Source: a virus. Taken from it: a DNA stretch of 64,000 nt. A program made the translations under genes and the position numbers. Each line of letters opens with the position of its first letter. Within the stretch, counting starts at the first letter, position 1. The stretch is taken from positions 33,039 to 97,038 of the IMG/VR virus record IMGVR_UViG_3300021963_006848. The stretch is one strand, 5' to 3'. The notes beneath the pieces were generated by a model. That model ran no database searches. It was not told where the DNA came from and saw only the letters and a list, made by a program, of their open reading frames with translations. Of the stretch, positions 27,295 through 37,796 are shown one piece after another.

Positions 27295-28005
27295 TTAGTT
27301 GCGACATTTTCCTGCTAATTCTATATTCTTATAGAACTCAGCTCTACAAGAATCTTCTTTTAAAAATGCTCCTGAAAGTTTAGCTGTCTGCATTGAAGCA
27401 CCATTATGTTTAGTACCTCGGCAAGATACACAATTGTGTGTTGCATCTACCATTACAGCTACTCCTTCGTTACCTTCGCAGATCTTATCAATAGCATGAT
27501 GAATAGCTACTGTTAATTGCTCTTGGATAGCTCCTCGACGACCGAAGTATTCTACAATACGGTTTAGTTTAGATAATCCAATAACCTTACCGTCTTTACC
27601 TGGAATATAAGCTACACTAACTCGACCTTGAATAGTCTGGTGATGATGTGAACACATCGAAGTTAAAGGAATGTTACTTTCCTGTACTAATCCGTCATAA
27701 CCGTCTGATGGGAATGCTGTAATTTCTGGTGGTGCTGAGAATCGACCTGCCCATAGGTCATTTACGTATGCTTTTGCTACTCGACGTGGAGTATCAGATG
27801 AGTTTGGATCATTTCTCCAATCACACCCTAAAGCATCTAAGAACTTACCGAATGCTTCTGCAGCGTTTGAGATAATTTCATATTTCTCAGAGTCGGTAAG
27901 ATGAACATCTACCATTTTACTAATTTTTTGCTTTTCAGCTAACTGTGTGGATAAACCATTTGCGTAACCTGCTTCGGTTACCTCTAACGAATACTTCTTC
28001 TTCAT
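27295..28005 (-). CDS. folE: GTP cyclohydrolase I
   Basis: DTPRRVAK, SMCSHH, GLSKLNR, QEQLT, HNCVSCRG. Confidence 0.96.
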   Translation of the reverse strand: MKKKYSLEVTEAGYANGLSTQLAEKQKISKMVDVHLTDSEKYEIISNAAEAFGKFLDALGCDWRNDPNSSDTPRRVAKAYVNDLWAGRFSAPPEITAFPSDGYDGLVQESNIPLTSMCSHHHQTIQGRVSVAYIPGKDGKVIGLSKLNRIVEYFGRRGAIQEQLTVAIHHAIDKICEGNEGVAVMVDATHNCVSCRGTKHNGASMQTAKLSGAFLKEDSCRAEFYKNIELAGKCRN

Positions 28006-28015
28006 TTTATATGTT

Positions 28016-28042
28016 TGTTTTTAAAGTGGTGCTACGACACTA
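28016..28042 (-). promoter_or_regulatory. preQ1-I-like riboswitch candidate, copy 1 (folE leader)
   Basis: AGUG-UCGUAGCAC-CACU-UUAAAAACA; 27 nt identical to 31310-31336; lies between the promoter at 28052-28082 and the folE ATG. Confidence 0.7.
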
Positions 28043-28051
28043 CTATAACTT

Positions 28052-28082
28052 AATTTACGAAAACTTTGCTTAAGATCCAAAT
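28052..28082 (-). promoter_or_regulatory. Bacteroidota-type promoter
   Basis: ATTTG-N16-TTCGTAAATT. Confidence 0.7.
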
Positions 28083-28504
28083 TATTTCAAGTAATCTTGA
28101 ACGTAATCACTGTCTTTATTTTCCCAGGGGAATACTAACCATCTAGCATCATCGATTAACTCGCAATACTTATCCGGAACGTACTTACTATTATGCCTAA
28201 ATGCTAATGATAAAGTTAAAAATTCATAAGCATCAATTTCTGCAAAAGTAATACCTGTATCGCATATATCATCTACTACTAGAGTTTTATGTCTCAGTCG
28301 AGTAGGTAGTAATTTAGCGTCTGCTAAACTTATATAATTAATTTTGTACCTATGTGAAATTAGAACTGCAGGAATTAAACCTCCTCTAGGTAAACCTGTA
28401 ACGTATGCTATAGGTTCTTGACAATCTAGCCACATTCCAATTTTATCAATTTGACTCTCCACCCACTCCCAGGTAAGGTCTCTTGTAATAATTACTTCTC
28501 TCAT
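28082..28504 (-). CDS. type I phosphoribosyltransferase (Gpt/Hpt-like)
   Basis: GLPRGGLIPA, LVVDDICDTGIT PRPP loop, WLVFPWE. Confidence 0.9.
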   Translation of the reverse strand: MREVIITRDLTWEWVESQIDKIGMWLDCQEPIAYVTGLPRGGLIPAVLISHRYKINYISLADAKLLPTRLRHKTLVVDDICDTGITFAEIDAYEFLTLSLAFRHNSKYVPDKYCELIDDARWLVFPWENKDSDYVQDYLK

Positions 28505-28899
28505 TTATTAGAAGTAGTGTAGCTAATTGAACTTCCGGACGGATATCCTAAAGTAGTTGATGTTTTTGTAAATGGCGGTGTAGCATATGTAATTGAACCA
28601 CCACCCGGTGTTGTTGTAACTACTGCCTGCGTAGTACATGTTCCTGATAATCCTATCGGGTTAGTAAGTGGTACATCTCCTACATAAAATGGATTTACCT
28701 TATGAGGTTCTTGCCATCTTGGATATGATTCATGTACTCTAAAAGTGTTGTGATCTGAAATGATACCTCCAAGTGGTATTGAATCGTCTACTTCTTTTAA
28801 CTTATCTTTTAATGCATCCCATTGTTTTGGAGTTGGTGCGTACTCGTGGCAAGCTTCTACAAAACCTTGCATCCATGTAACAAATTCTTTTGATGTCAT
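28501..28899 (-). CDS. hypothetical protein
   Basis: 132 aa, F..W..GF N-terminus, Thr-rich tail. Confidence 0.65.
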   Translation of the reverse strand: MTSKEFVTWMQGFVEACHEYAPTPKQWDALKDKLKEVDDSIPLGGIISDHNTFRVHESYPRWQEPHKVNPFYVGDVPLTNPIGLSGTCTTQAVVTTTPGGGSITYATPPFTKTSTTLGYPSGSSISYTTSNK

Positions 28900-28904
28900 A
28901 ACTT

Positions 28905-29504
28905 TTAATTACAATTTATTTTATATTCTTGCCATTTTTTAGTAGGCGGTTGATTCGGAAAATAATAACATTCAGTTTTACCGCTCTTAGTAAATTTAAT
29001 TACTTTATAAAATGCATCAGGTACTGTGGCATTTGTAGGTAGTTTGATAGACTTATCGCTGAAAATTGCTCTAACTGTTACTTCTAACACTTCTGTATCT
29101 GCCCATACTCTCTCTTGTGCTTCCAATAGTCGCCACTCTCCTCTATTTAATCTTTCATTCTGTAAAGCAGAATTTAGATAGGTAAAAGTCTGTTTTAAGT
29201 TCTCTTTGGAGTCGGTAAAATGTGCAGCAGGAGCCATATGTCCTTTATCGTATATGTTTGCTGCGTAGTCATTATTATCAGATGTATGGTAATCTTTCTC
29301 TGTGTAGAAATCTAACCCTTTTCTATCTGCTACTTTTACTATAGGTCTTGCAGTGTATTTAACCCAGAGAGGCTGTTCTTTAGTCTCTGAATACATTACT
29401 TCAAATATTGGAGTTTTAACTAGTACTGAATCTCGTAATTGCCCGTAAGCAGTTGTTAATGTTAATAAAAATGCTAAAAGAAGCAAATTCGATTTTCTTC
29501 CCAT
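28905..29504 (-). CDS. exported DNA/RNA non-specific endonuclease (NucA-like)
   Basis: Signal peptide AYG/Q; DKGHMAPA, TF.Y.N..Q...LNRGEW..LE, VPDAFYKV. Confidence 0.9.
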   Translation of the reverse strand: MGRKSNLLLLAFLLTLTTAYGQLRDSVLVKTPIFEVMYSETKEQPLWVKYTARPIVKVADRKGLDFYTEKDYHTSDNNDYAANIYDKGHMAPAAHFTDSKENLKQTFTYLNSALQNERLNRGEWRLLEAQERVWADTEVLEVTVRAIFSDKSIKLPTNATVPDAFYKVIKFTKSGKTECYYFPNQPPTKKWQEYKINCN

Positions 29505-29764
29505 CTGTAATTGTTTAACTGTTTATAATCGGTTTCTGATAAAATTGTAACATTTTGAGTATCTACAGGATGTTCATCTATGTAGTTAATTAACTCTAGG
29601 AAAGTTACAGGACCAAATTCTATTTCGTCGTAATCTTCTGTTATTAAGTGAAGGTTACCGTTCTGTACTTTATAATCCCATACAATCAAACCATCTACTA
29701 GTATTTCAACATCTCCCATGTTGTCTATACCCACTTCAAATTTTAATATATCTTCTAAGTTCAT
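29474..29764 (-). CDS. acidic hypothetical protein; start revised to MNLEDIL
   Basis: TATTTATA motif at 29771-29778 precedes the ATG at 29764. Confidence 0.6.
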   Translation of the reverse strand: MNLEDILKFEVGIDNMGDVEILVDGLIVWDYKVQNGNLHLITEDYDEIEFGPVTFLELINYIDEHPVDTQNVTILSETDYKQLNNYRWEENRICFF

Positions 29765-29783
29765 AGTAAATATAAATAGAGGT

Positions 29784-30566
29784 TTACACAGCTCTCTTGG
29801 TATCAAAAGCAATAATATGCTCTCTACCTGTAAATCGGTATGCATTTTGAGTACACCATTCTATAACTAAAGGATATACTCTAATTAGCTCTTGACGATT
29901 ATCTCCTGGAGGCATTATAATTACCTTATTTTTAGGTATCTCTAACTCATCCAACCAAGCTCTTGTCTCTAACCATTCTTCAGGTCTCTCTACTGGATTA
30001 GCTACGATTTTAACGTGGTAATCTTTATGGTATGCCAATGTCTCTTTAATTGCTTCTTTATTGAGACGATGCCTGTTGTGCGTGTCAATAAGCTTCTGGT
30101 CCGTAACTGCACCTTGAGGAGTAAGTACCCCCAATACAGGCACACTATTGGTAAACTTAGGACTAAGACTAATAAGGTCAATAGGATAGTCGGTAGCGAG
30201 GAAATGGCTCCCTTCAGTCTCGATGGTAATAATGATACCTCTTTCATGAGCAAAATGTGTTAATTCGTTAACTAAAGCTGGATGCATTGTTGGTGAACCC
30301 CCTGTTAACATCATCTCCTTCACTTCTGGGTTCTCATCGTATATCTTAACGATATCGTTGAAATTATAAATACCTTTTTCTGGATGTATACTGGTATACC
30401 AAGAGTCACACCATCCGCCTTCTCCAAAGTAACAACGGTGAGTACAACCTGTAGTTCTAATTGCTACAGTTGGGTAGCCAGCTCTTGAACCTTCTGATTG
30501 TACGCAAGTGTACAATTCTACGATAGGTAACTTTTTACTATAATCTGTAATTCTTCCTAAACTCAT
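29784..30566 (-). CDS. queE: 7-carboxy-7-deazaguanine synthase (radical SAM)
   Basis: QSEG...G.PT..IRTTGC...C...WCDS, TGGSP, IETEG, SLSPK. Confidence 0.92.
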   Translation of the reverse strand: MSLGRITDYSKKLPIVELYTCVQSEGSRAGYPTVAIRTTGCTHRCYFGEGGWCDSWYTSIHPEKGIYNFNDIVKIYDENPEVKEMMLTGGSPTMHPALVNELTHFAHERGIIITIETEGSHFLATDYPIDLISLSPKFTNSVPVLGVLTPQGAVTDQKLIDTHNRHRLNKEAIKETLAYHKDYHVKIVANPVERPEEWLETRAWLDELEIPKNKVIIMPPGDNRQELIRVYPLVIEWCTQNAYRFTGREHIIAFDTKRAV

Positions 30567-30577
30567 TATTTTTTATT

Positions 30578-31039
30578 TTATGCTTGATAAGATGCAGAAT
30601 TTCTTTCGTGTTCGTAAACTTCTACTTTTACAGCTTTTACTCGTCCTTCGGTTTCTGCTTCTAAGAACTCATTAATTTCGTTATACAGATACTCTGCAAA
30701 TCTTTCACATCCTGTTGCAGGAAGTATACGTAACTGTATTATACCGTCTTCATCCATCTGCTTAAAGTTCTCTAAATATGGATCATCCTCTGCTACTATT
30801 GTAGTATGGTCTAATAAGTAGTTAAAGAAGTCTTTAGGTGAACTACCGTACATAGTAGTCTTTGCTCTCTTCATTCCACCAAAGTCCCATACCCAGTTAC
30901 GTTCGTCTAATTCTCCTTCGAACCATACTCTAAAAGATACTGCGTATCCATGTAAATACTTACAGTGAGTTCCTTCTGCTTTCCATTGACGAAAACAAGT
31001 AGAGTATCCGTCAAATAATTTTGTTGATTGAAATTTCAT
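30578..31039 (-). CDS. queD: 6-carboxy-5,6,7,8-tetrahydropterin synthase
   Basis: HCKYLHGY, DFG, LDH, E..A, EVYE...NSA. Confidence 0.9.
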   Translation of the reverse strand: MKFQSTKLFDGYSTCFRQWKAEGTHCKYLHGYAVSFRVWFEGELDERNWVWDFGGMKRAKTTMYGSSPKDFFNYLLDHTTIVAEDDPYLENFKQMDEDGIIQLRILPATGCERFAEYLYNEINEFLEAETEGRVKAVKVEVYEHERNSASYQA

Positions 31040-31049
31040 ATTGTATAAT

Positions 31050-31304
31050 TTAAACTAATTCTTCGTAAATTCCAACTAGTTCGGAAACAATTAACAATAC
31101 GGCTGCAATCTCTATTGAAAAAAATAGAGCTACATATCCTGCAATCCTAATACCGGATTTAAGGAAACTTACTAGTTGGTGTTTTTTTGGATCGGGAAGT
31201 TTTTGACCTTTTATTACTAAATCGTCATAAAAAGTTACTGCAGGTTTTACTTTTTTACCTTTCAGATTTCGAGATGCGTGTACTACATCATGCGGGTTTG
31301 TCAT
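31050..31304 (-). CDS. small membrane protein leading the queD-queE operon
   Basis: 84 aa with hydrophobic C-terminal half; downstream of riboswitch copy 2. Confidence 0.65.
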   Translation of the reverse strand: MTNPHDVVHASRNLKGKKVKPAVTFYDDLVIKGQKLPDPKKHQLVSFLKSGIRIAGYVALFFSIEIAAVLLIVSELVGIYEELV

Positions 31305-31309
31305 GGGTG

Positions 31310-31336
31310 TGTTTTTAAAGTGGTGCTACGACACTA
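31310..31336 (-). promoter_or_regulatory. preQ1-I-like riboswitch candidate, copy 2
   Basis: Identical 27-mer; lies between the promoter at 31349-31379 and the ATG at 31304. Confidence 0.7.
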
Positions 31337-31348
31337 TTGTCTAAAACT

Positions 31349-31379
31349 AATGTACGAATAATTATCTTACGAAACAACT
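31349..31379 (-). promoter_or_regulatory. Bacteroidota-type promoter
   Basis: AGTTG-N16-TTCGTACATT. Confidence 0.75.
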
Positions 31380-31383
31380 TTTA

Positions 31384-31500
31384 CTAAAAATTCTTATAAA
31401 TAAAAGGGTCTCTTTTTTTTAATTCTTCTATTTTCTTCTTAAACTCTCTTTTCTTTTTCCAGTTTTTGAAAAGTTTCTTTATAGTATCTAAAAATTTCAT
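31384..31500 (-). CDS. 38-aa basic peptide coupled to the carbamoyltransferase (DPFIY motif)
   Basis: MKFLDTIKKLFKNWKKKREFKKKIEELKKRDPFIYKNF; ATGA overlap with the upstream stop. Confidence 0.65.
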   Translation of the reverse strand: MKFLDTIKKLFKNWKKKREFKKKIEELKKRDPFIYKNF

Positions 31501-33176
31501 TTGTGTTTCATTTTAATAATGAGGTAGTTATCTATTACAAGAAAATCCATCTTACTATCTAAAAATCTCTCTACTGCTTGCTTTGGTGTTATAGTAATTG
31601 TCTGATCCTTAAAATTAAAAGATGTATTTAAACATATAGGATAACCTGATATACGTTTCAATGCTAAAAGCAATTGGTAATACCTTGGGTTTTGTTCTTT
31701 AGTAACTGTTTGAACTCTTGCTGTATTATCAATATGAGTAATAGAAGGTAGTCTGTGGTTCTTTTTAACTTCTACAACTTGATTCATATAAGGTACCGGT
31801 TCTTTTATATCGAAAAATATTTTAGCGTCTTCTTCTATACATGAAGGAGCGAAAGGTCTAAAGCTTTCTCTCTTTTTGATAACTTTGTTGATTTTATCTT
31901 TAATACCTGGATGAAGAGGTGAAGCAAGTATAGACCTATTACCTAGAGCTCTTGCTCCAAATTCCATATTACCTTGGAACCATCCTACTATATTCCCGCT
32001 ATGGATTATAGATGCTACCTTATTCAGAAGTCTCTCTTCTGTAGGGTATCTAAAGTAGTATATCTTGTTACCAAAGTACTCTAATTGAGTACGTATACTT
32101 ACTTCATTGAAAGAAGGACCTGTGTAAGGAACGCTATTATCCTTTCTAGGACCTTTATAAGATGCTAAGCATGCACCAATAGCAGAACCTGCATCTGAAG
32201 GTGCAAATGGTATGTGGATTGATGAATAATGTTTATATGCTTTTGTGTTAGCTAATCCATTATACGCACATCCGCCTCCTAAACAGAGATTATCAGAATT
32301 AACTAATTCTTTAGCTTTCTCTAGAATTCTATTAAACTGCTTTTCGTAAATAAACTGTACAGCTGCTGCTAGATCATAATCATCTTGTGTAATTTCATCT
32401 TCCGGAAGGCGAGGACCTCTACCTAATACATTACATAGGTCAGAAGTAAACATTATCTTATCTGAATACTCCCAAGTAAAGTATTCTGGGTAAAATGAAA
32501 AAATTGATTCTTTTTCGAATTTAAAAAGCTTATGAAGGAATGGAACATACTTACTAGCATCTCCATATCCAGCCATACCCATAACTTTGTACTCACCTTC
32601 GTTAGGTTTGAAGCCAAGAAATGCGGTAAAGGTAGAGTAGAATAATCCTAAAGATTCTGGGAAGTTAATAGCAAATACTTTTTCTATAGAACTATCTTTT
32701 GCTTTTGAAATTGTAACTGTTTCAAACTCTCCAACTCCGTCTATAGTTACAACTGCCGCTTCTTTGTAAGGGCTAGTAAAATAGGAAAATGCTGCGTGAG
32801 ATAAATGGTGTTCAACATACCTAACAGGGCCTTGGTATAGGAAATGTTTTGCTAATAAAAAGTTAGGATTGTGAAGTTCTTTTCTCTCTTTGAGAAATTT
32901 TAATCTTCTAAAGAATGTACGAAAAGGATATTTGTTAAAAGATTTGAGTACTCTTGCTCTCTTTAATTCTGGAATCTCATACCAGCAAACTTCGTCAATG
33001 TCGTTTATTGTAAGTTTACTTGCTCTTAAAACCCATTTGATCGCATCTACTGGAAAACTATCGTCATGTTTGATACCTGATAGCTTTTCTTGTTCAATGG
33101 CATAAAGAACCTTACCGTCTTTAACGATGCATGCTGCAGAGTCGTGGTAAAATGCTGAAATGCCTAGTTGTATCAT
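31497..33176 (-). CDS. O-carbamoyltransferase, NodU/CmcH family
   Basis: HDSAA, EHHLSHAA, DGVGE, YKVMGMAGYG, EFGARALGNRS, RESFRPFAP, LNTSFN. Confidence 0.95.
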   Translation of the reverse strand: MIQLGISAFYHDSAACIVKDGKVLYAIEQEKLSGIKHDDSFPVDAIKWVLRASKLTINDIDEVCWYEIPELKRARVLKSFNKYPFRTFFRRLKFLKERKELHNPNFLLAKHFLYQGPVRYVEHHLSHAAFSYFTSPYKEAAVVTIDGVGEFETVTISKAKDSSIEKVFAINFPESLGLFYSTFTAFLGFKPNEGEYKVMGMAGYGDASKYVPFLHKLFKFEKESIFSFYPEYFTWEYSDKIMFTSDLCNVLGRGPRLPEDEITQDDYDLAAAVQFIYEKQFNRILEKAKELVNSDNLCLGGGCAYNGLANTKAYKHYSSIHIPFAPSDAGSAIGACLASYKGPRKDNSVPYTGPSFNEVSIRTQLEYFGNKIYYFRYPTEERLLNKVASIIHSGNIVGWFQGNMEFGARALGNRSILASPLHPGIKDKINKVIKKRESFRPFAPSCIEEDAKIFFDIKEPVPYMNQVVEVKKNHRLPSITHIDNTARVQTVTKEQNPRYYQLLLALKRISGYPICLNTSFNFKDQTITITPKQAVERFLDSKMDFLVIDNYLIIKMKHK

Positions 33177-33214
33177 ACTCTTATAAATAGAACTTTATTA
33201 TTTTTTACTAGACG

Positions 33215-33288
33215 TGGACCAACCTGGGCTCGAACCAGGGACCTACTGATTATGAGTCAGTTGCTCTAACCAACTGAGCTATAAGTCC
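33215..33288 (-). tRNA. tRNA with CAT anticodon, probably Ile2 (lysidine type), otherwise elongator Met
   Basis: GGACTTATAGCTCAGTTGGTTAGAGCAACTGACT-CAT-AATCAGTAGGTCCCTGGTTCGAGCCCAGGTTGGTCCA. Confidence 0.9.
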
Positions 33289-33291
33289 AAG

Positions 33292-33388
33292 TACCTACCA
33301 GATGAATATTTTATCCCCATATGGGCCACGGCCATTAAGTGCGTTACTTTCATTCATCGGCCATCACACAGTTTCACTGCTTAAGGTA
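33292..33388 (-). ncRNA. small structured element between tRNA genes
   Basis: TACCT/AGGTA ends, GATGAAT/ATTCATC, ATGGCC/GGCCGT crossing pair, CCCATATGGG hairpin. Confidence 0.4.
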
Positions 33389-33392
33389 AGTG

Positions 33393-33561
33393 CTGTAGAG
33401 GAAGGAGTCGAACCTTCACGCGGCGATTCAATAAATGACATTCTTGCTAGCTAGCGTGTGGTCAACCCATTATCATTTATCTATCTCTTATCCGCACCCT
33501 CGAGACGGGAGGGCATGTCTGCCACGACCGGGGACACCCCAATCCATTCCACCACTCTACA
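33393..33561 (-). ncRNA. 169-nt tRNA-like RNA with D-loop hairpin insert and very long variable arm
   Basis: Acceptor TGTAGAG/CTCTACA, T arm GAAGG-TTCGACT-CCTTC, stem CCCTC/GAGGG with loop CCGTCTC. Confidence 0.75.
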
Positions 33562-33577
33562 ATAAAAAAAAGAAACG

Positions 33578-33663
33578 TACCTCGAGCCAGAGTCGAACTG
33601 GCACGGGCGTTTCTGCCCACAAGATTTTAAGTCTTGCATGTCTACCTATTTCATCATCGAGGC
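33578..33663 (-). tRNA. tRNA-Leu(TAA)
   Basis: Class II cloverleaf, CAAGA-CTTAAAA-TCTTG, variable arm GGGC/GCCC. Confidence 0.95.
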
Positions 33664-33680
33664 AGGTACGTTAATTTTAA

Positions 33681-34536
33681 GTAAGCCTGAGACTACAGCT
33701 CTAACGCTAGATCTTTTGAGGTATTATCTTAATTCCCCTCTTGTCCAGAGACTTTTGATCTCTATTCTAGCAATGCTGGTTATTTAGGTGAACCACTCCT
33801 TGAGCTACTTATTATTTGGACTACTCTCTCCCTACTCGTCTCTATTCAAATCTGCCGACCTGATTAACCCTTGCGAGGCTATAGAACTTTCTAGAGAATC
33901 ACTCTTGACTTGCGATCTTAAGTGGCACTGAACAGCTCAGTACTATGTAAGCATCTTTCGTCCGTAGCTGGCAAGCGCTTTTGCTTTTATGATTATGTAT
34001 TTTTGAAAATGCAATAATTCAAAAGTTAGCGACTTGTGGATTGTAAAGGTAGCGGCCTGCCCTAAGCTCTCTTAACTTTTGATCAAGAGAATACTTAACT
34101 ACCTTTTGAAGTGTCCCCACCTCCATACTTTAAGATATCTTCATAACTAACATCTTGGTAGATGCTTGCTAAGGTAGATAACAGCACCACCTGTACACCT
34201 ACTTGCCTTTCAGCTTTAAGATACCTCTTATATTGAGCAACGCAATAATATACTTGGATAAGTATACTTCTTGCAAATACCCTACAGGTTAATCTTATTA
34301 CTCTTCCGAGCTCAACTAAACGACCCACATCGCCTAGTCACTAAACCACTTTCCCTAAAGTGTTACCCTCAGTACTTAAGGTTTAATGATACCCTGCTTG
34401 CATACTTAAGCTCTTGCGAGCCGCAAACTACCTCAGTCAAAGCAGTTCACTTTACACCGGTTTCCCGGTTTATTTACCGACTATATGCCGCCGAATGTTA
34501 TTTATGATTTAGCCGAAGCTTCATCAATGGATAACA
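33681..34536 (-). ncRNA. large (~850 nt) structured non-coding RNA, GOLLD-like
   Basis: No credible ORF, many GNRA/UUCG-capped hairpins, own promoter and boxA, followed by tRNAs; ends approximate. Confidence 0.7.
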
Positions 34537-34538
34537 AT

Positions 34539-34551
34539 GTTTTCAAAGAAC
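34539..34551 (-). promoter_or_regulatory. boxA-like antitermination element
   Basis: GTTCTTTGAAAAC just downstream of the promoter at 34566-34596. Confidence 0.55.
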
Positions 34552-34565
34552 GTTTTATTTAATTT

Positions 34566-34596
34566 AAGATAAGAACTTTATTTCGTATCTCCAACT
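34566..34596 (-). promoter_or_regulatory. Bacteroidota-type promoter for the ncRNA/tRNA operon
   Basis: AGTTG-N16-TTCTTATCTT. Confidence 0.7.
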
Positions 34597-34599
34597 AAT

Positions 34600-34827
34600 T
34601 TAGTAAATTTTATTTTCCTGATTTCTTCTAGCTTCTTCTGCTTCTTTGTACATATTAATCCATGTCAAAGATACATCTACAGGAGCTAAAACCCAAGCCA
34701 TAACTAAAACCATAATTGAGTCTAGTTCTGGAGAATTACCCATACTATCTACACCAACTCTTTTATACTTTTTATGTAATTGTATAAAACAGTAAATGAT
34801 ACAAATGATATAGTAGGGGACAAACAT
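34600..34827 (-). CDS. small membrane protein
   Basis: Two hydrophobic segments; promoter at 34847-34877. Confidence 0.6.
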   Translation of the reverse strand: MFVPYYIICIIYCFIQLHKKYKRVGVDSMGNSPELDSIMVLVMAWVLAPVDVSLTWINMYKEAEEARRNQENKIY

Positions 34828-34846
34828 ATAACTTCTTATTTAATTT

Positions 34847-34877
34847 AATATACGAACGTTAGTTCTAAATTGCAACT
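34847..34877 (-). promoter_or_regulatory. Bacteroidota-type promoter
   Basis: AGTTG-N16-TTCGTATATT. Confidence 0.75.
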
Positions 34878-34885
34878 TTTTTTTA

Positions 34886-35092
34886 TTAAAATTTTCCCGG
34901 CCTGAAATAGGGTATATAAGCTTTTCCTCTAATAGCACGTTGCTGATTGAAAGGGTGTGTTCTGAAGTAATACCCTCTGATTTTGTTTCGATGGTTCCAT
35001 AGTCGCTTTTCATGAATCGACATTTTCATTGGCATCCATACACAGCTACTTAGTAGTAATATAACACTCATTAATAATAATAACTTTTTCAT
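34886..35092 (-). CDS. small basic putative lipoprotein
   Basis: MKK, hydrophobic stretch, LSSC lipobox. Confidence 0.6.
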   Translation of the reverse strand: MKKLLLLMSVILLLSSCVWMPMKMSIHEKRLWNHRNKIRGYYFRTHPFNQQRAIRGKAYIPYFRPGKF

Positions 35093-35094
35093 AA

Positions 35095-35940
35095 TTATAA
35101 CTGTTTAATGTATTCTAGTAATCTGTCTTCTGGTTGCCATCCAAGTCTTTCTATGGCGTCTTTATTTTCTCTTAAAGTCTCTCTGTAGTTACCTTTTTGT
35201 TCTCTCATGTAGACTTTAACGCAGTTAAATTTTTCTACAAACATATTAGCAACTTGATTTATAGAGTAATTTTTACCTGTTCCTAATTCCCAAGCATCTT
35301 CGTGTTTTTCATCACTCTCTGCAACTTTAATTAATCCATCTACAATATCTCTTATATGAGTGAAATCTCGTCTCTGTTCTCCATCACCTACTATGGTGAT
35401 AGGGTAGTTTTTAGCAACTTGACCTCTCCATCTACCTATAACTGCTGCCCAATCTCCTTCTAAAATTTCATTAGGTCCGTATACATTGTAGAATCTTACA
35501 ATTTCAGCATCTAAGTTAAACACCTGCTTATACATCTTTATAATTTCTTCCCCCATGTGTTTAGAACATGCATATGGAGACTGCAAAGGGTTATGCCATC
35601 TAGAAGAAGATCCTGCATATATAACTTTAGCTTCTATTTGATGAGCAAACTTACATACATCCAAAGTTCCTTGAGTATTAACTCTAAAGGTTTCTTGTGG
35701 GTTAGCAAAGGAAGGCTGTATTCTACTTAAAGCAGCTAAGTGATAGATAAGATCGAAATCTTTATCCATTAAGTCTATTCGCTCTATATCACCATACCAG
35801 TAATGGCAACCTGGGATTTCGTATTCTTTAAACCCTACAGAAAGGTCATCTAATGAAGTGACAGAATGTCCTTCTATTACCAACCTTTTTATAAGGTTAC
35901 TTCCTACAAATCCATTTCCTCCAGTAACTAATATCTTCAT
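35095..35940 (-). CDS. NAD-dependent nucleotide-sugar epimerase/dehydratase; start revised to MKILVTGG
   Basis: GGNGFVG, HLAA, YACSK (YxxxK), RFYNVYGP, GDGEQRRDF; the longer ORF call overlaps a tRNA. Confidence 0.9.
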   Translation of the reverse strand: MKILVTGGNGFVGSNLIKRLVIEGHSVTSLDDLSVGFKEYEIPGCHYWYGDIERIDLMDKDFDLIYHLAALSRIQPSFANPQETFRVNTQGTLDVCKFAHQIEAKVIYAGSSSRWHNPLQSPYACSKHMGEEIIKMYKQVFNLDAEIVRFYNVYGPNEILEGDWAAVIGRWRGQVAKNYPITIVGDGEQRRDFTHIRDIVDGLIKVAESDEKHEDAWELGTGKNYSINQVANMFVEKFNCVKVYMREQKGNYRETLRENKDAIERLGWQPEDRLLEYIKQL

Positions 35941-35955
35941 ATAAACCTTATCTAG

Positions 35956-36027
35956 TTGCGGGAGAAGGATTCGAACCTCCGACCCCAAGGTTATGAGCCT
36001 TGTGAGCTACCTCTGCTCTATCCCGCG
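35956..36027 (-). tRNA. tRNA-Met(CAT), initiator-like
   Basis: CGCGGGA...TCCCGCA-A with C1:A72 mismatch; CAAGG-CTCATAA-CCTTG. Confidence 0.9.
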
Positions 36028-36035
36028 ATATAATG

Positions 36036-36108
36036 TACTCCGTAGGGGTTTCGAACCCCTAATCTCCTCCGTGAAAGGGAGGCGACTTAACCGTTTGTCC
36101 AACGGAGC
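36036..36108 (-). tRNA. tRNA-Glu(TTC)
   Basis: GCTCCGT/ACGGAGT, CCTCC-CTTTCAC-GGAGG, AGGGG-TTCGAAA-CCCCT. Confidence 0.92.
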
Positions 36109-36115
36109 GGAATTG

Positions 36116-36498
36116 TGGAGATGGAGGGAGTCGAACCCTCGTCCAAATACGGATTTAATAAACCTCATTCACAAGCTTAGTTAATTTTTCTAAATTAACA
36201 AAATATAAAGTTTGATAAATGTGGGAACCAAACTTTCAAACAACCTGGTCTCGAAATTATTTAATAGAGCTCCGACCTGTTACTCCAACTCTCACTTCTT
36301 TTTAAATTCCCATGAGTGATACGGGAAAGATTAGGCAGCTACTGCGTAATCAGCACCTACGAAAGCCATAGCGTCTTCGAAAGTGAAAGAAGATAATTCT
36401 TCTGCGTTTATTGTTTGATAGGTGTTTAAGGATTTCCATCTAATCCTGCTTGCATCAATTGTACCAACTCATCGTACCTGTCAAAACCGGGCATCCCC
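36116..36498 (-). ncRNA. ssrA: tmRNA with tag AEELSSFTFEDAMAFVGADYAVAA*
   Basis: GGGGATG/CATCTCC acceptor with G3:U, TTTGAC, GGACGAGGGTTCGACTCCCTC T arm, ATAAAC-GCA resume site, tag ORF at 36331-36405. Confidence 0.93.
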
Positions 36499-36503
36499 AA
36501 TTG

Positions 36504-36575
36504 AGCTTCCTCGAGGAATCGAACCCCGTTATCCTGAGTACAAATCAGGCGCATCACCATTTATGCTTAGGAAGC
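36504..36575 (-). tRNA. tRNA-Thr(TGT)
   Basis: GCTTCCT/AGGAAGC, CCTGA-TTTGTAC-TCAGG. Confidence 0.92.
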
Positions 36576-36577
36576 AA

Positions 36578-36716
36578 TTTAGGAAAGGAGAAGATGGTTG
36601 CGTGGACATCTCCTTTTATGATTGGCATTACTTAGGTGTATTTTTCCCAACTCCGATGATACCCGCCAAAATACACTCTCGAGCCATTGATACCATCATT
36701 CCCCAATCAACCTAAA
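36578..36716 (-). ncRNA. ~139-nt structured RNA candidate upstream of tRNA-Thr
   Basis: TTTAGG/CCTAAA, TGATTGG/CCAATCA, GTGTATTTT/AAAATACAC, AAAGGAGA/TCTCCTTT stems. Confidence 0.55.
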
Positions 36717-36724
36717 AGGTTTTT

Positions 36725-36913
36725 TTACTTTACTTCAGTTTCAGCTTTTGGAGCTTCTTCAGCAGGAATTTCTGCTACTGTAGAATCTGTTGCTGTTACT
36801 GCAGCTGTATCTACTGCTACTGCTGTTGAGTCTGTTGCTACTGCTTCTGATTTACCGTTACCGCATGATGCTAATGTAACTACTAAAGCTGTTGCTAAGA
36901 TTACTTTTTTCAT
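36725..36913 (-). CDS. small Ala/Thr-rich lipoprotein
   Basis: LASC lipobox, DST/DTA motifs. Confidence 0.8.
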   Translation of the reverse strand: MKKVILATALVVTLASCGNGKSEAVATDSTAVAVDTAAVTATDSTVAEIPAEEAPKAETEVK

Positions 36914-36956
36914 AATTGTTTTTGTTTTTGTTTAAATTTACTGATATATAAATAGT

Positions 36957-37796
36957 TTACTTGATATGTTCTGCTAAAACTTTTTCTACATGGGATTTAG
37001 CTACTTCCCATTCAACTGGTCCTGTCTCGTCTTCGTATTGAACAGGATCTTTACGGCCCAACTTAATAAAAGCTTCAATACGCTCCACAGAGCTAGCAGA
37101 CTTATAGTCGCTATTACCAGAAGGGTAAGGCTTATATGAAGTGTTAGTTCTCTTGTACACCTCATCAAAGTCCAAACCGAGTGTTTCACATGCTTTAAGT
37201 CCATCTTCTAGAATACCAAATTTATCTGTATCTAAATAGGGAGTATAAAACTTAACACGTTCTGCATCCCAGTTACCAATTCTAAATGCTTCCATATCTG
37301 CATCTCTAAACTCTTGACGACAGTCAGGGTAGATTGCATGATCTCCAGCATGAATACCTAGAGAAATAAAGGTATCTTCTTTTGTTTCGTTCGCTACTGA
37401 TAAAGCTACTGCTTGTACTAATGAACTAAAGATCTTATTACGATTAGGTACAACAGTATCTTTCATGTTATCTTGTTCGTAATGACCTTCCGGTACATCT
37501 TTACCTCCTTCAACTAATGCTGAGTTTAGTAGTTCTTTCAACCCATCTAATTTAATAATCTGATGTGTTGGTGGGAGAAAAGAATAATTCTTATCGTTAT
37601 CAAACGGTGGATGCATAGCATTCCATATCTCATTAATATACTCTACTAATGATGTTGCACGTTCTAACTCTACTCTATGTTTCTGACCGTAATCAAAAGA
37701 CAAAGTAGTAACTCTGTAGCCATTTGCTAACAAATGTAGTAATAAAGTAGAGGAGTCCATCCCTCCAGATAAGGACAATACAGCATTCTTCGCCAT
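36957..37796 (-). CDS. queC: 7-cyano-7-deazaguanine synthase
   Basis: SLSGGMDS, FDYGQKH, VVPNRN, HAGD...YPDCR. Confidence 0.95.
   Translation of the reverse strand: MAKNAVLSLSGGMDSSTLLLHLLANGYRVTTLSFDYGQKHRVELERATSLVEYINEIWNAMHPPFDNDKNYSFLPPTHQIIKLDGLKELLNSALVEGGKDVPEGHYEQDNMKDTVVPNRNKIFSSLVQAVALSVANETKEDTFISLGIHAGDHAIYPDCRQEFRDADMEAFRIGNWDAERVKFYTPYLDTDKFGILEDGLKACETLGLDFDEVYKRTNTSYKPYPSGNSDYKSASSVERIEAFIKLGRKDPVQYEDETGPVEWEVAKSHVEKVLAEHIK

Follow-up and report, generated by a model that had tools for sequence, protein, structure and literature searches.

What is the element with the outline of a tRNA that lies between the genes for a tRNA-Leu and a tRNA-Met in the IMG/VR virus record IMGVR_UViG_3300021963_006848? 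The stretch analysed, referred to here as the window, comprises 64,000 nucleotides of that record (positions 33,039 to 97,038). An earlier note on this DNA had described the element as a 169-nt tRNA mimic, unlikely to decode, with an 8-bp hairpin in the D loop, a variable arm of about 80 nt and an anticodon-position loop, CCGTCTC, lacking both U33 and a purine at position 37. Every structural item of that description is present and the coordinates are exact, as judged both from the sequence and from a covariance model. The D-loop hairpin is evident in the sequence and its fold, the variable arm measures 76 nt, and the loop, CCGUCUC in the RNA, places C at position 33 and U at position 37.

A tRNA cloverleaf with two expansions

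Read from the sequence, the minus strand of the window from 33561 to 33393 specifies a complete tRNA cloverleaf carrying two expansions (Table 1; the RNA position is 33562 minus the window coordinate). The acceptor stem, UGUAGAG/CUCUACA, is perfect in all seven of its pairs and is followed by G73. The first expansion, the D-loop hairpin GAUUGGGG-UGU-CCCCGGUC, has 8 bp with a fold energy of −11.8 kcal/mol and would be positioned at the outer corner, or elbow, of the L. The second is the variable arm, which from base to tip comprises a 4-bp base, a 4-nt bulge, a 3-bp stem, a conserved internal loop and a stem of 8–10 bp, beyond which the tip forks into two hairpins. In the window copy the base is GCGG/CCGC and the long stem is the 10-bp AUAAAUGAUA/UGUCAUUUAU. 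ARAGORN makes no call on the candidate and no family of Rfam 15, including RF00005, matches it at E up to 10. When both expansions were cut out in silico, however, ARAGORN called the remaining 74-nt core as tRNA-Asp(GTC).

Table 1. Window coordinates of the element, its parts and its neighbours, with locus coordinates of related matches elsewhere
Feature	Position	Strand	Basis or remark
Whole tRNA-shaped RNA gene, 169 nt	33393..33561	−	covariance model R1, 160 bits
Acceptor stem 5′ strand UGUAGAG; U1, G2, U3 family-conserved	33555..33561	−	pairs with 33394–33400
U8-G9 ahead of D stem		−	window copy; sequence
D arm: 3-bp stem GUG/CAU, 32-nt D loop	33515..33552	−	UG before stem, G after
A14, A15	33548–33547	−	D arm
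8-bp hairpin in D-loop alpha region, before G18G19	33526..33544	−	fold −11.8 kcal/mol
G18G19 equivalents	33523–33522	−	D arm
Anticodon-position arm: stem CCCUC/GAGGG, loop CCGUCUC (33508–33502), GUC (33506–33504)	33497..33513	−	
Variable arm, 76 nt (RNA positions 67–142)	33420..33495	−	helices 4–9 of model
Conserved hairpin motif GGGUUGACCAC inside variable arm	33458..33468	−	
T arm GAAGG-UUCGACU-CCUUC, GU junction before	33401..33417	−	canonical T loop
Acceptor 3′ strand CUCUACA, G73 (33393), encoded C74 (33392)	33392..33400	−	
tRNA-Leu(UAA), 15 nt upstream	33577..33663	−	ARAGORN and Rfam; bridged by RNA contigs
GOLLD conserved 3′ domain, upstream; 5′ domain to about 34500	33684..34106	−	Rfam RF02032, 271.5 bits
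tRNA-Met(CAU), 104 nt downstream	33214..33288	−	ARAGORN and Rfam
Short-armed loop variants	L299:1501–1610, L299:1723–1831, L212:4017–4134		bacterial genomes
Over-long model matches	L102:10174–10280, L102:10395–10517, L040:1224–1347, L060:12777–12943		
Over-long model matches, continued	L006:10989–11110, L077:13156–13276, L105:3806–3922		

The fold of the single sequence is no better than those of its shuffles (z = −1.47), so the case against chance rests on the family. A neighbouring protein led to one ortholog (L005), and a pattern for the T arm and acceptor to five more relatives. A covariance model (alignment A2, model R1) was built from five sequences, and matches 33393–33561 on the minus strand over its full length with 160 bits and an E value of 7e-43, the window copy being itself one of the five seeds. 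The phage set was collected from IMG/VR with a pattern combining the conserved hairpin of the arm with the T loop, the anticodon loop being left unused. A covariance-model search of phage sequences had been proposed as a check in the earlier note; with the model at least 94 phage loci in IMG/VR contigs score 90–176 bits. Long-armed members as a whole score 72–176 bits, in contrast to ordinary tRNAs, which stay below 55 bits.

In the 81 distinct phage sequences 97.7% of the cells form standard pairs, 32 of the 42 pairs show changes on both sides and 700 cells are compensatory. None of 500 shuffles reaches any of the measures, and sliding the partners drops the pairing to 40–51%; the alignment was fitted to the model, a bias in the model's favour, although the margin over these controls is very large. 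Support extends to all ten helices, also within the giant arm, where helices 4–9 are 88–100% paired with many compensatory changes. All seven acceptor pairs covary, as do pairs 10-25 and 11-24 of the D stem and four of the five pairs of the anticodon-position stem. The family of tRNA-shaped RNAs is under strong structural selection. The window copy holds all the helices in paired form, with the base stem, bulge, internal loop, long stem and GGGUUGACCAC hairpin. The family is uncatalogued, being absent from Rfam 15, and no description of it was found in a search of the literature.

The candidate resembles the bacterial class II tRNAs, above all tRNA-Leu (RF00005), in its D stem of 3 bp, in the placing of an extra arm between positions 44 and 48, in a D-arm sequence close to that of tRNA-Leu and in having all the nucleotides of the tertiary fold. 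The variable arms of class II tRNAs are of roughly 10–25 nt, whereas that of the candidate extends to 76 nt with internal loops and a fork. Further differences from tRNA-Leu are that position 73 is G and not A, that the loop is of the Asp type with C33 and U37, and that the D loop contains the hairpin. It departs from a canonical tRNA in C33 and U37, and is detected as one only after removal of both expansions. The tRNA-like domain of tmRNA and the bacterial Y RNA YrlA also combine a tRNA-like acceptor/T-arm module with a large extra domain, but these replace the anticodon arm or close the molecule by a different stem, while the candidate keeps a full anticodon arm and has its insert in the variable region. 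It does not match their Rfam models at E up to 10. Allo-tRNAs are non-canonical long-armed tRNAs of bacteria and phages, with GUC among the commonest anticodons; they are defined by an 8/4 or 9/3 arrangement of acceptor and T stems, and a role in missense suppression or regulation has been proposed for them (Mukai et al, 2017, PMC5389517). The candidate, in contrast, has a 7-bp acceptor and a 5-bp T stem, both backed by covariation, a far longer arm and a home in other taxa.

The nucleotides that hold a tRNA together are conserved along with the helices. U8, A14, A15 with U48, G18G19 and the T loop UUCRANU are all invariant in the 81 phage sequences; every nucleotide required for the tRNA L-shape is thereby kept, and the cloverleaf is L-shape-competent. 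The anticodon loop has G34-U35-C36 in 81/81 sequences, U37 in 79/81 and C38 in 75/81, while position 33 varies, with U in 40 sequences, C in 39 and A in 2. This conservation was not forced, because the phage set was gathered without the anticodon loop. At the acceptor end G73 is found in 81/81, U1-A72 in 80/81 and G2-C71 in 79/81. The window copy shows the family signature in full: a loop that fits YYGUCUC, together with G73, U1-A72, G2-C71 and C74. The invariance of GGGUUGACCAC in the large sets follows from its use in the search pattern. In the six relatives that were found without it the motif is present in four, with a one-base variant in a fifth, and the hairpin is missing from the short-armed bacterial members.

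C follows G73, at a place outside both the covariance model and the search pattern, in 82/82 copies from phages and 109/109 from bacteria (191/191), and CCA is seldom encoded. Among ordinary tRNA genes, C74 is present in 455 of the 472 from the phage loci, 51 of which encode CCA, and in all 14 of those parsed in the bacterial loci. An invariant encoded C74, as in ordinary tRNA genes, suggests a shared route of 3′ maturation. In the T stem, pair 51-63 is A-U or U-A in 78 of the 81 family sequences, in contrast to G-C in 16 of 18 ordinary tRNA-Asp genes, and pair 50-64 is mostly G-U or A-U, where the ordinary tRNA-Asp of the same loci has C-G followed by G-C at 51-63. According to work from the Uhlenbeck laboratory, these two pairs reportedly tune the affinity for EF-Tu, and tRNA-Asp is said to need a tight-binding body.

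Rare short-armed variants carry a loop of CUUUCUC (UUC, Glu-type) or CGAUCUC in place of that with GUC (Table 1). The body is the same and U37-C38 is kept, which makes the U37-C38 signature a more constant trait than GUC. Pairing of a GAC in the arm hairpin with the GUC of the loop was considered and rejected: short-armed members do without the hairpin, and the sequences offer no variation with which covariation could be tested.

The tRNA island and its transcript

ARAGORN and Rfam find five neighbouring tRNAs, a tmRNA and a GOLLD RNA around the candidate. The RNA island spans 27295–37796 of the window and contains tRNA-Thr, tmRNA, tRNA-Glu, tRNA-Met, an epimerase gene, GOLLD, tRNA-Leu, the candidate and tRNA-Met. 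It is embedded among genes for FolE, a QueE-like protein, QueD, a carbamoyltransferase and QueC. The phage tmRNA (36115–36498, minus strand) encodes a tag of 24 residues with YAVAA at its end. Between the candidate and tRNA-Met the spacer shows poor conservation and no significant fold.

The presence of the sequence in RNA was examined with public RNA runs. Nineteen runs, drawn from more than a dozen studies of fresh water and rivers, contain 43–77% of the sampled words of 33180–34560, and four RNA runs were aligned to the window as contigs, which cannot give ends, strand or CCA or rank the RNAs by depth. Three of these runs (X1, X2 and X3), which belong to two studies, have metatranscriptome contigs that cover the element. 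In X1 two contigs, over 33261–33486 and 33491–33650, agree with the window in every letter, and record 2 of that run bridges the 3′ half of the candidate, the spacer and tRNA-Met(CAU). X2 has a single contig of 1618 nt over 33391–34700 with about 99% identity, and X3 a contig over 33402–33735. GOLLD is joined to tRNA-Leu and the candidate in X2 (record 12) and X3 (record 17). X5 gave no cover on the candidate, and no loose contig ends with an added CCA were listed in the RNA runs. The adjacent carbamoyltransferase coding sequence (33100–33207) has a depth of 0 in X1 and X3 and of 8 versus 315 in X2, and this near-absence of cover argues against DNA carry-over. The candidate RNA is expressed, its sequence being present in RNA libraries on contigs with GOLLD and tRNA-Leu.

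Contig depths over GOLLD (window 33684–34540, minus strand) reach the hundreds, and GOLLD heads the transcript of the candidate. The match of the X2 contig to the window ends at 33391, 2 nt past G73, and the next 32 letters match tRNA-Leu from 33650. This jump may reflect a related strain with another downstream gene or a joint made in assembly.

The earlier note had suggested that the element might be a partner of the adjacent large RNA. tRNAs linked to GOLLD have been noted as possible cargo (10.1101/2024.12.08.627333), and like them the candidate lies just 3′ of GOLLD, within a tRNA island of the phage, and shares RNA contigs with it. In contrast to those tRNAs, most members of the family have no GOLLD nearby: it is inside the fetched flanks of only 7 of the 94 listed phage loci, and a scan with Rfam did not find it at three bacterial loci, nor any Rfam family on the bacterial copies at E up to 1. 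Partnership with GOLLD as a general role was therefore rejected, and its adjacency here reflects shared residence in a tRNA island and a shared transcript. Clustering of the neighbouring genes in the 94 phage loci found no common protein partner, only lineage-specific genes, which include those for a portal, a lysin, a PD-(D/E)XK nuclease, an RNase H-like protein and unknowns. A link to deazaguanine was also rejected, que genes being near members only in the window and in the close relatives L005 and L041.

Two further tRNA-like elements follow GOLLD directly in LR745206.1, a 635-kb uncultured phage (L003:3356–3445 and L003:3537–3626), each with a D-loop hairpin of about 20 nt. They were rejected as members of the family, since the hairpin is in the beta region, after G18G19, and the loop is CUUUUCG. 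With a Lys-type UUU and C37 they form a separate kind of expanded tRNA in which position 37 is again a pyrimidine.

A Bacteroidota family with a phage subgroup

Relatives of the candidate are found on bacterial chromosomes. A scan of one genome per species gave at least 111 bacterial matches, nearly all on chromosomes of Bacteroidota; U37 and C38 are forced in this set because the scan pattern included GTCTC. Carriers among the matches listed include Chitinophaga, Pedobacter, Spirosoma, Saprospiraceae, Cyclobacteriaceae and Aquirufa. When the phylum was sampled evenly, 15 of 151 genomes gave a match with E no higher than 1e-12 under strict filters. The home of the family is the chromosome of Bacteroidota, in Chitinophagales, Cytophagales, Sphingobacteriales and Saprospiraceae. 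A divergent regulator of the Lrp/AsnC family lies about 150 nt upstream in 81 of the 120 bacterial loci listed, often followed by sufB.

This distribution bears on the claim of the earlier note that the element is made on the scaffold of a tRNA-Leu. The likeness to the neighbouring tRNA-Leu in D arm, GU junction and T loop is real, but the RNA is not built on that tRNA, since the Leu-like class II D arm is family-wide and chromosomal in Bacteroidota and the anticodon side is Asp-type.

All three of the complete carrier genomes that were checked also hold ordinary tRNA-Asp(GUC) genes, with the loop CUGUCAC, and in 10 of the 94 listed phage loci, which have large tRNA islands, an ordinary tRNA-Asp(GTC) adjoins the family member. 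As the ordinary tRNA-Asp co-occurs with it, the family represents an additional gene and not the tRNA-Asp of these organisms. An ordinary tRNA-Asp was not found in the 97-kb record of this phage, which is about 54% complete, so the candidate could be the only GUC tRNA that this phage has and decoding stays as a rival explanation. BLAST against GenBank phages with three members gave no match for the candidate or a second member and only one uncultured phage, of 636 kb, for the third; no cultured phage carrier was found with these queries.

Copies in phages differ from those in bacteria at two places. A D loop of at least 20 nt is present in 43 of 79 phage copies but in none of 104 bacterial copies, and C33 in 39 of 79 against 8 of 104. 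The two changes go together, C33 occurring in 35 of 41 copies with a D-loop insert and in 4 of 36 without, an association that may be the mark of one clade. Each insert is a short hairpin, in many cases a palindromic one, and that of the window is the longest perfect hairpin. From these sequence traits the window copy can be assigned to a phage-only subgroup with C33 and the D-loop hairpin, and its gene can be described as a phage-borne, phage-modified copy of a Bacteroidota family of tRNA-shaped RNAs.

Possible roles of the RNA

G73, G34, U35, C36 and C38 are the five strong determinants of aspartate identity (PMC9976931). The candidate shares all of them with bacterial tRNA-Asp(GUC), together with G2-C71 and G10. 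It differs from tRNA-Asp(GUC) in having U1-A72 instead of G1-C72, U37 instead of A37 and pairs other than C-G and G-C at 50-64 and 51-63, and the family differs in its class II body and in co-occurring with the ordinary tRNA-Asp. This combination points, tentatively and with a likelihood that falls a little below one half, to a joint reading in which the RNA would mature like a tRNA, be read by AspRS and serve off the ribosome, its arm acting as a handle. RNase P and trimming of the 3′ end would release it, and its CCA would be completed as in the neighbouring tRNAs, as the encoded C74 would suggest. AspRS would read it through the five determinants, and the RNA would probably be aspartylated. 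It would seem not to be an ordinary decoder, and the giant arm would offer a handle for a partner. The RNA might then be a carrier, sensor or regulator that acts off the ribosome, and the phage copy would supply or override the host function during infection.

Work off the ribosome is proposed because the anticodon loop and the acceptor end are strictly conserved beside features that are rare in canonical decoders. U37, C33, the D-loop hairpin at the elbow, the contrast in the T stem and the co-occurring tRNA-Asp(GUC) are probably signs of an RNA that does not decode. That U37 or C33 would lead to a loss of decoding is an argument from general knowledge of tRNA. The description of the element as a mimic with little prospect of decoding fits well with the near-invariance of U37, with C33 and the elbow hairpin and with the ordinary tRNA-Asp in other loci that carry a member. 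Against the joint reading, G1-C72 and G2-C71 are strictly conserved in bacterial tRNA-Asp, G1-C72 being crucial for aspartate identity (PMC9976931), and U1-A72 departs from this. The long arm with G73 and G2-C71 could attract SerRS instead. Features of the SerRS type are G73, C72, G2-C71, C11-G24 and a large variable region (PMC9976931), of which the window copy has G73, G2-C71 and the large arm, but it has A72 and its pair 11-24 is U-A (C-G in 17/81).

A wider proposal, which is possible but doubtful, is that the family is a dedicated off-ribosome tRNA of Bacteroidota, chargeable with aspartate, whose giant arm docks a partner and whose expression is under the control of the divergent, amino-acid-sensing Lrp/AsnC regulator, and that the phage copies take over or jam this pathway. 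The phage copies would have been re-engineered through C33 and an elbow hairpin that is often palindromic, keeping the charging signals while moving further from decoding, and would be made from the GOLLD/tRNA transcript.

The RNA could instead be a working tRNA-Asp isoacceptor that reads GAC/GAU, with expansions that are tolerated or protective, for example against host tRNA nucleases. This seems rather unlikely, though several observations would suit it: the tRNA core is complete with the five strong Asp determinants, the gene lies in a tRNA operon with a tRNA-style C74, no other tRNA-Asp is present in this roughly 54% complete record, and phage tRNAs have been reported with changes in the anticodon loop that evade nucleases (PMC10264068). 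A decoder would however be expected neither to have a near-invariant pyrimidine 37, with C33 in half of the phage copies, nor to combine a 76-nt arm and an elbow hairpin with T-stem pairs unlike those of ordinary tRNA-Asp, and an ordinary tRNA-Asp stands beside the family member in the 10 phage loci and is present in the bacterial genomes checked. It is unlikely, too, that the RNA is an uncharged decoy or sponge for a reader of the tRNA-Asp anticodon loop, such as a colicin E5-type nuclease, tRNA-guanine transglycosylase or AspRS. The strict U1-A72, G2-C71, G73 and C74 indicate a function of the 3′ end that would be superfluous in a loop decoy, the bacterial gene is of a housekeeping style with its own regulator, and no nuclease partner was found among the neighbours. 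Genes for 7-deazaguanine precursors, which lie next door in this phage and would favour a decoy, are near members only here and in two close relatives. The invariance of G34 to C38 while the stem covaries, and the alteration in the phage subgroup of position 33, which adjoins the site that such enzymes read, would nevertheless be in keeping with it.

That the tRNA body is a scaffold for processing or stability, the active part being the variable arm, or that the RNA works with the upstream GOLLD nanocage, is improbable. The arm does have conserved internal loops and a conserved hairpin, and the contigs are shared with GOLLD, whose linked tRNAs are possible cargo (10.1101/2024.12.08.627333), but the anticodon loop and acceptor end are stricter than a scaffold needs, the conserved hairpin is absent in short-armed members, and GOLLD is near only 7 of 94 phage loci and none of the three bacterial ones. 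There is a very slim chance that the RNA is an off-ribosome platform for amidation, on which AspRS would load aspartate and GatCAB would read U1-A72 and convert it to asparagine. This would draw on the U1-A72 pair found in 80 of 81 sequences, on which amidotransferases rely (PMC9976931), as well as on the Asn-like T stem, the divergent AsnC-family regulator in bacteria and the rare Glu-type UUC loop variant on the same body. A decayed pseudo-tRNA with junk insertions, a reading that could appeal to the element being missed by standard tRNA finders and to the non-significant fold of the single sequence, has a negligible probability. For such decay the earlier note had looked to homologs without compensatory changes and an unstable RNA; instead there are some 200 relatives with pervasive compensatory changes, the functional nucleotides are invariant and the sequence is present in RNA libraries. 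The family covariation and the invariant functional nucleotides refute this reading.

A conserved pyrimidine 37 together with a structured variable arm of about 75 nt falls outside the tRNA finders, Rfam and the literature searched, although members of the family are common across several Bacteroidota orders and among the phages of these bacteria. If the RNA of the joint reading is charged yet does not decode, it would represent a new off-ribosome use of the aminoacylation machinery and also a new kind of host RNA that is copied and modified by phages. For annotation, the consequence is that these genes are now missed or miscalled. Other over-long tRNA-like matches to the model, of 95–167 nt and 20–64 bits, lie in phage tRNA islands (Table 1) and may be further expanded tRNAs.
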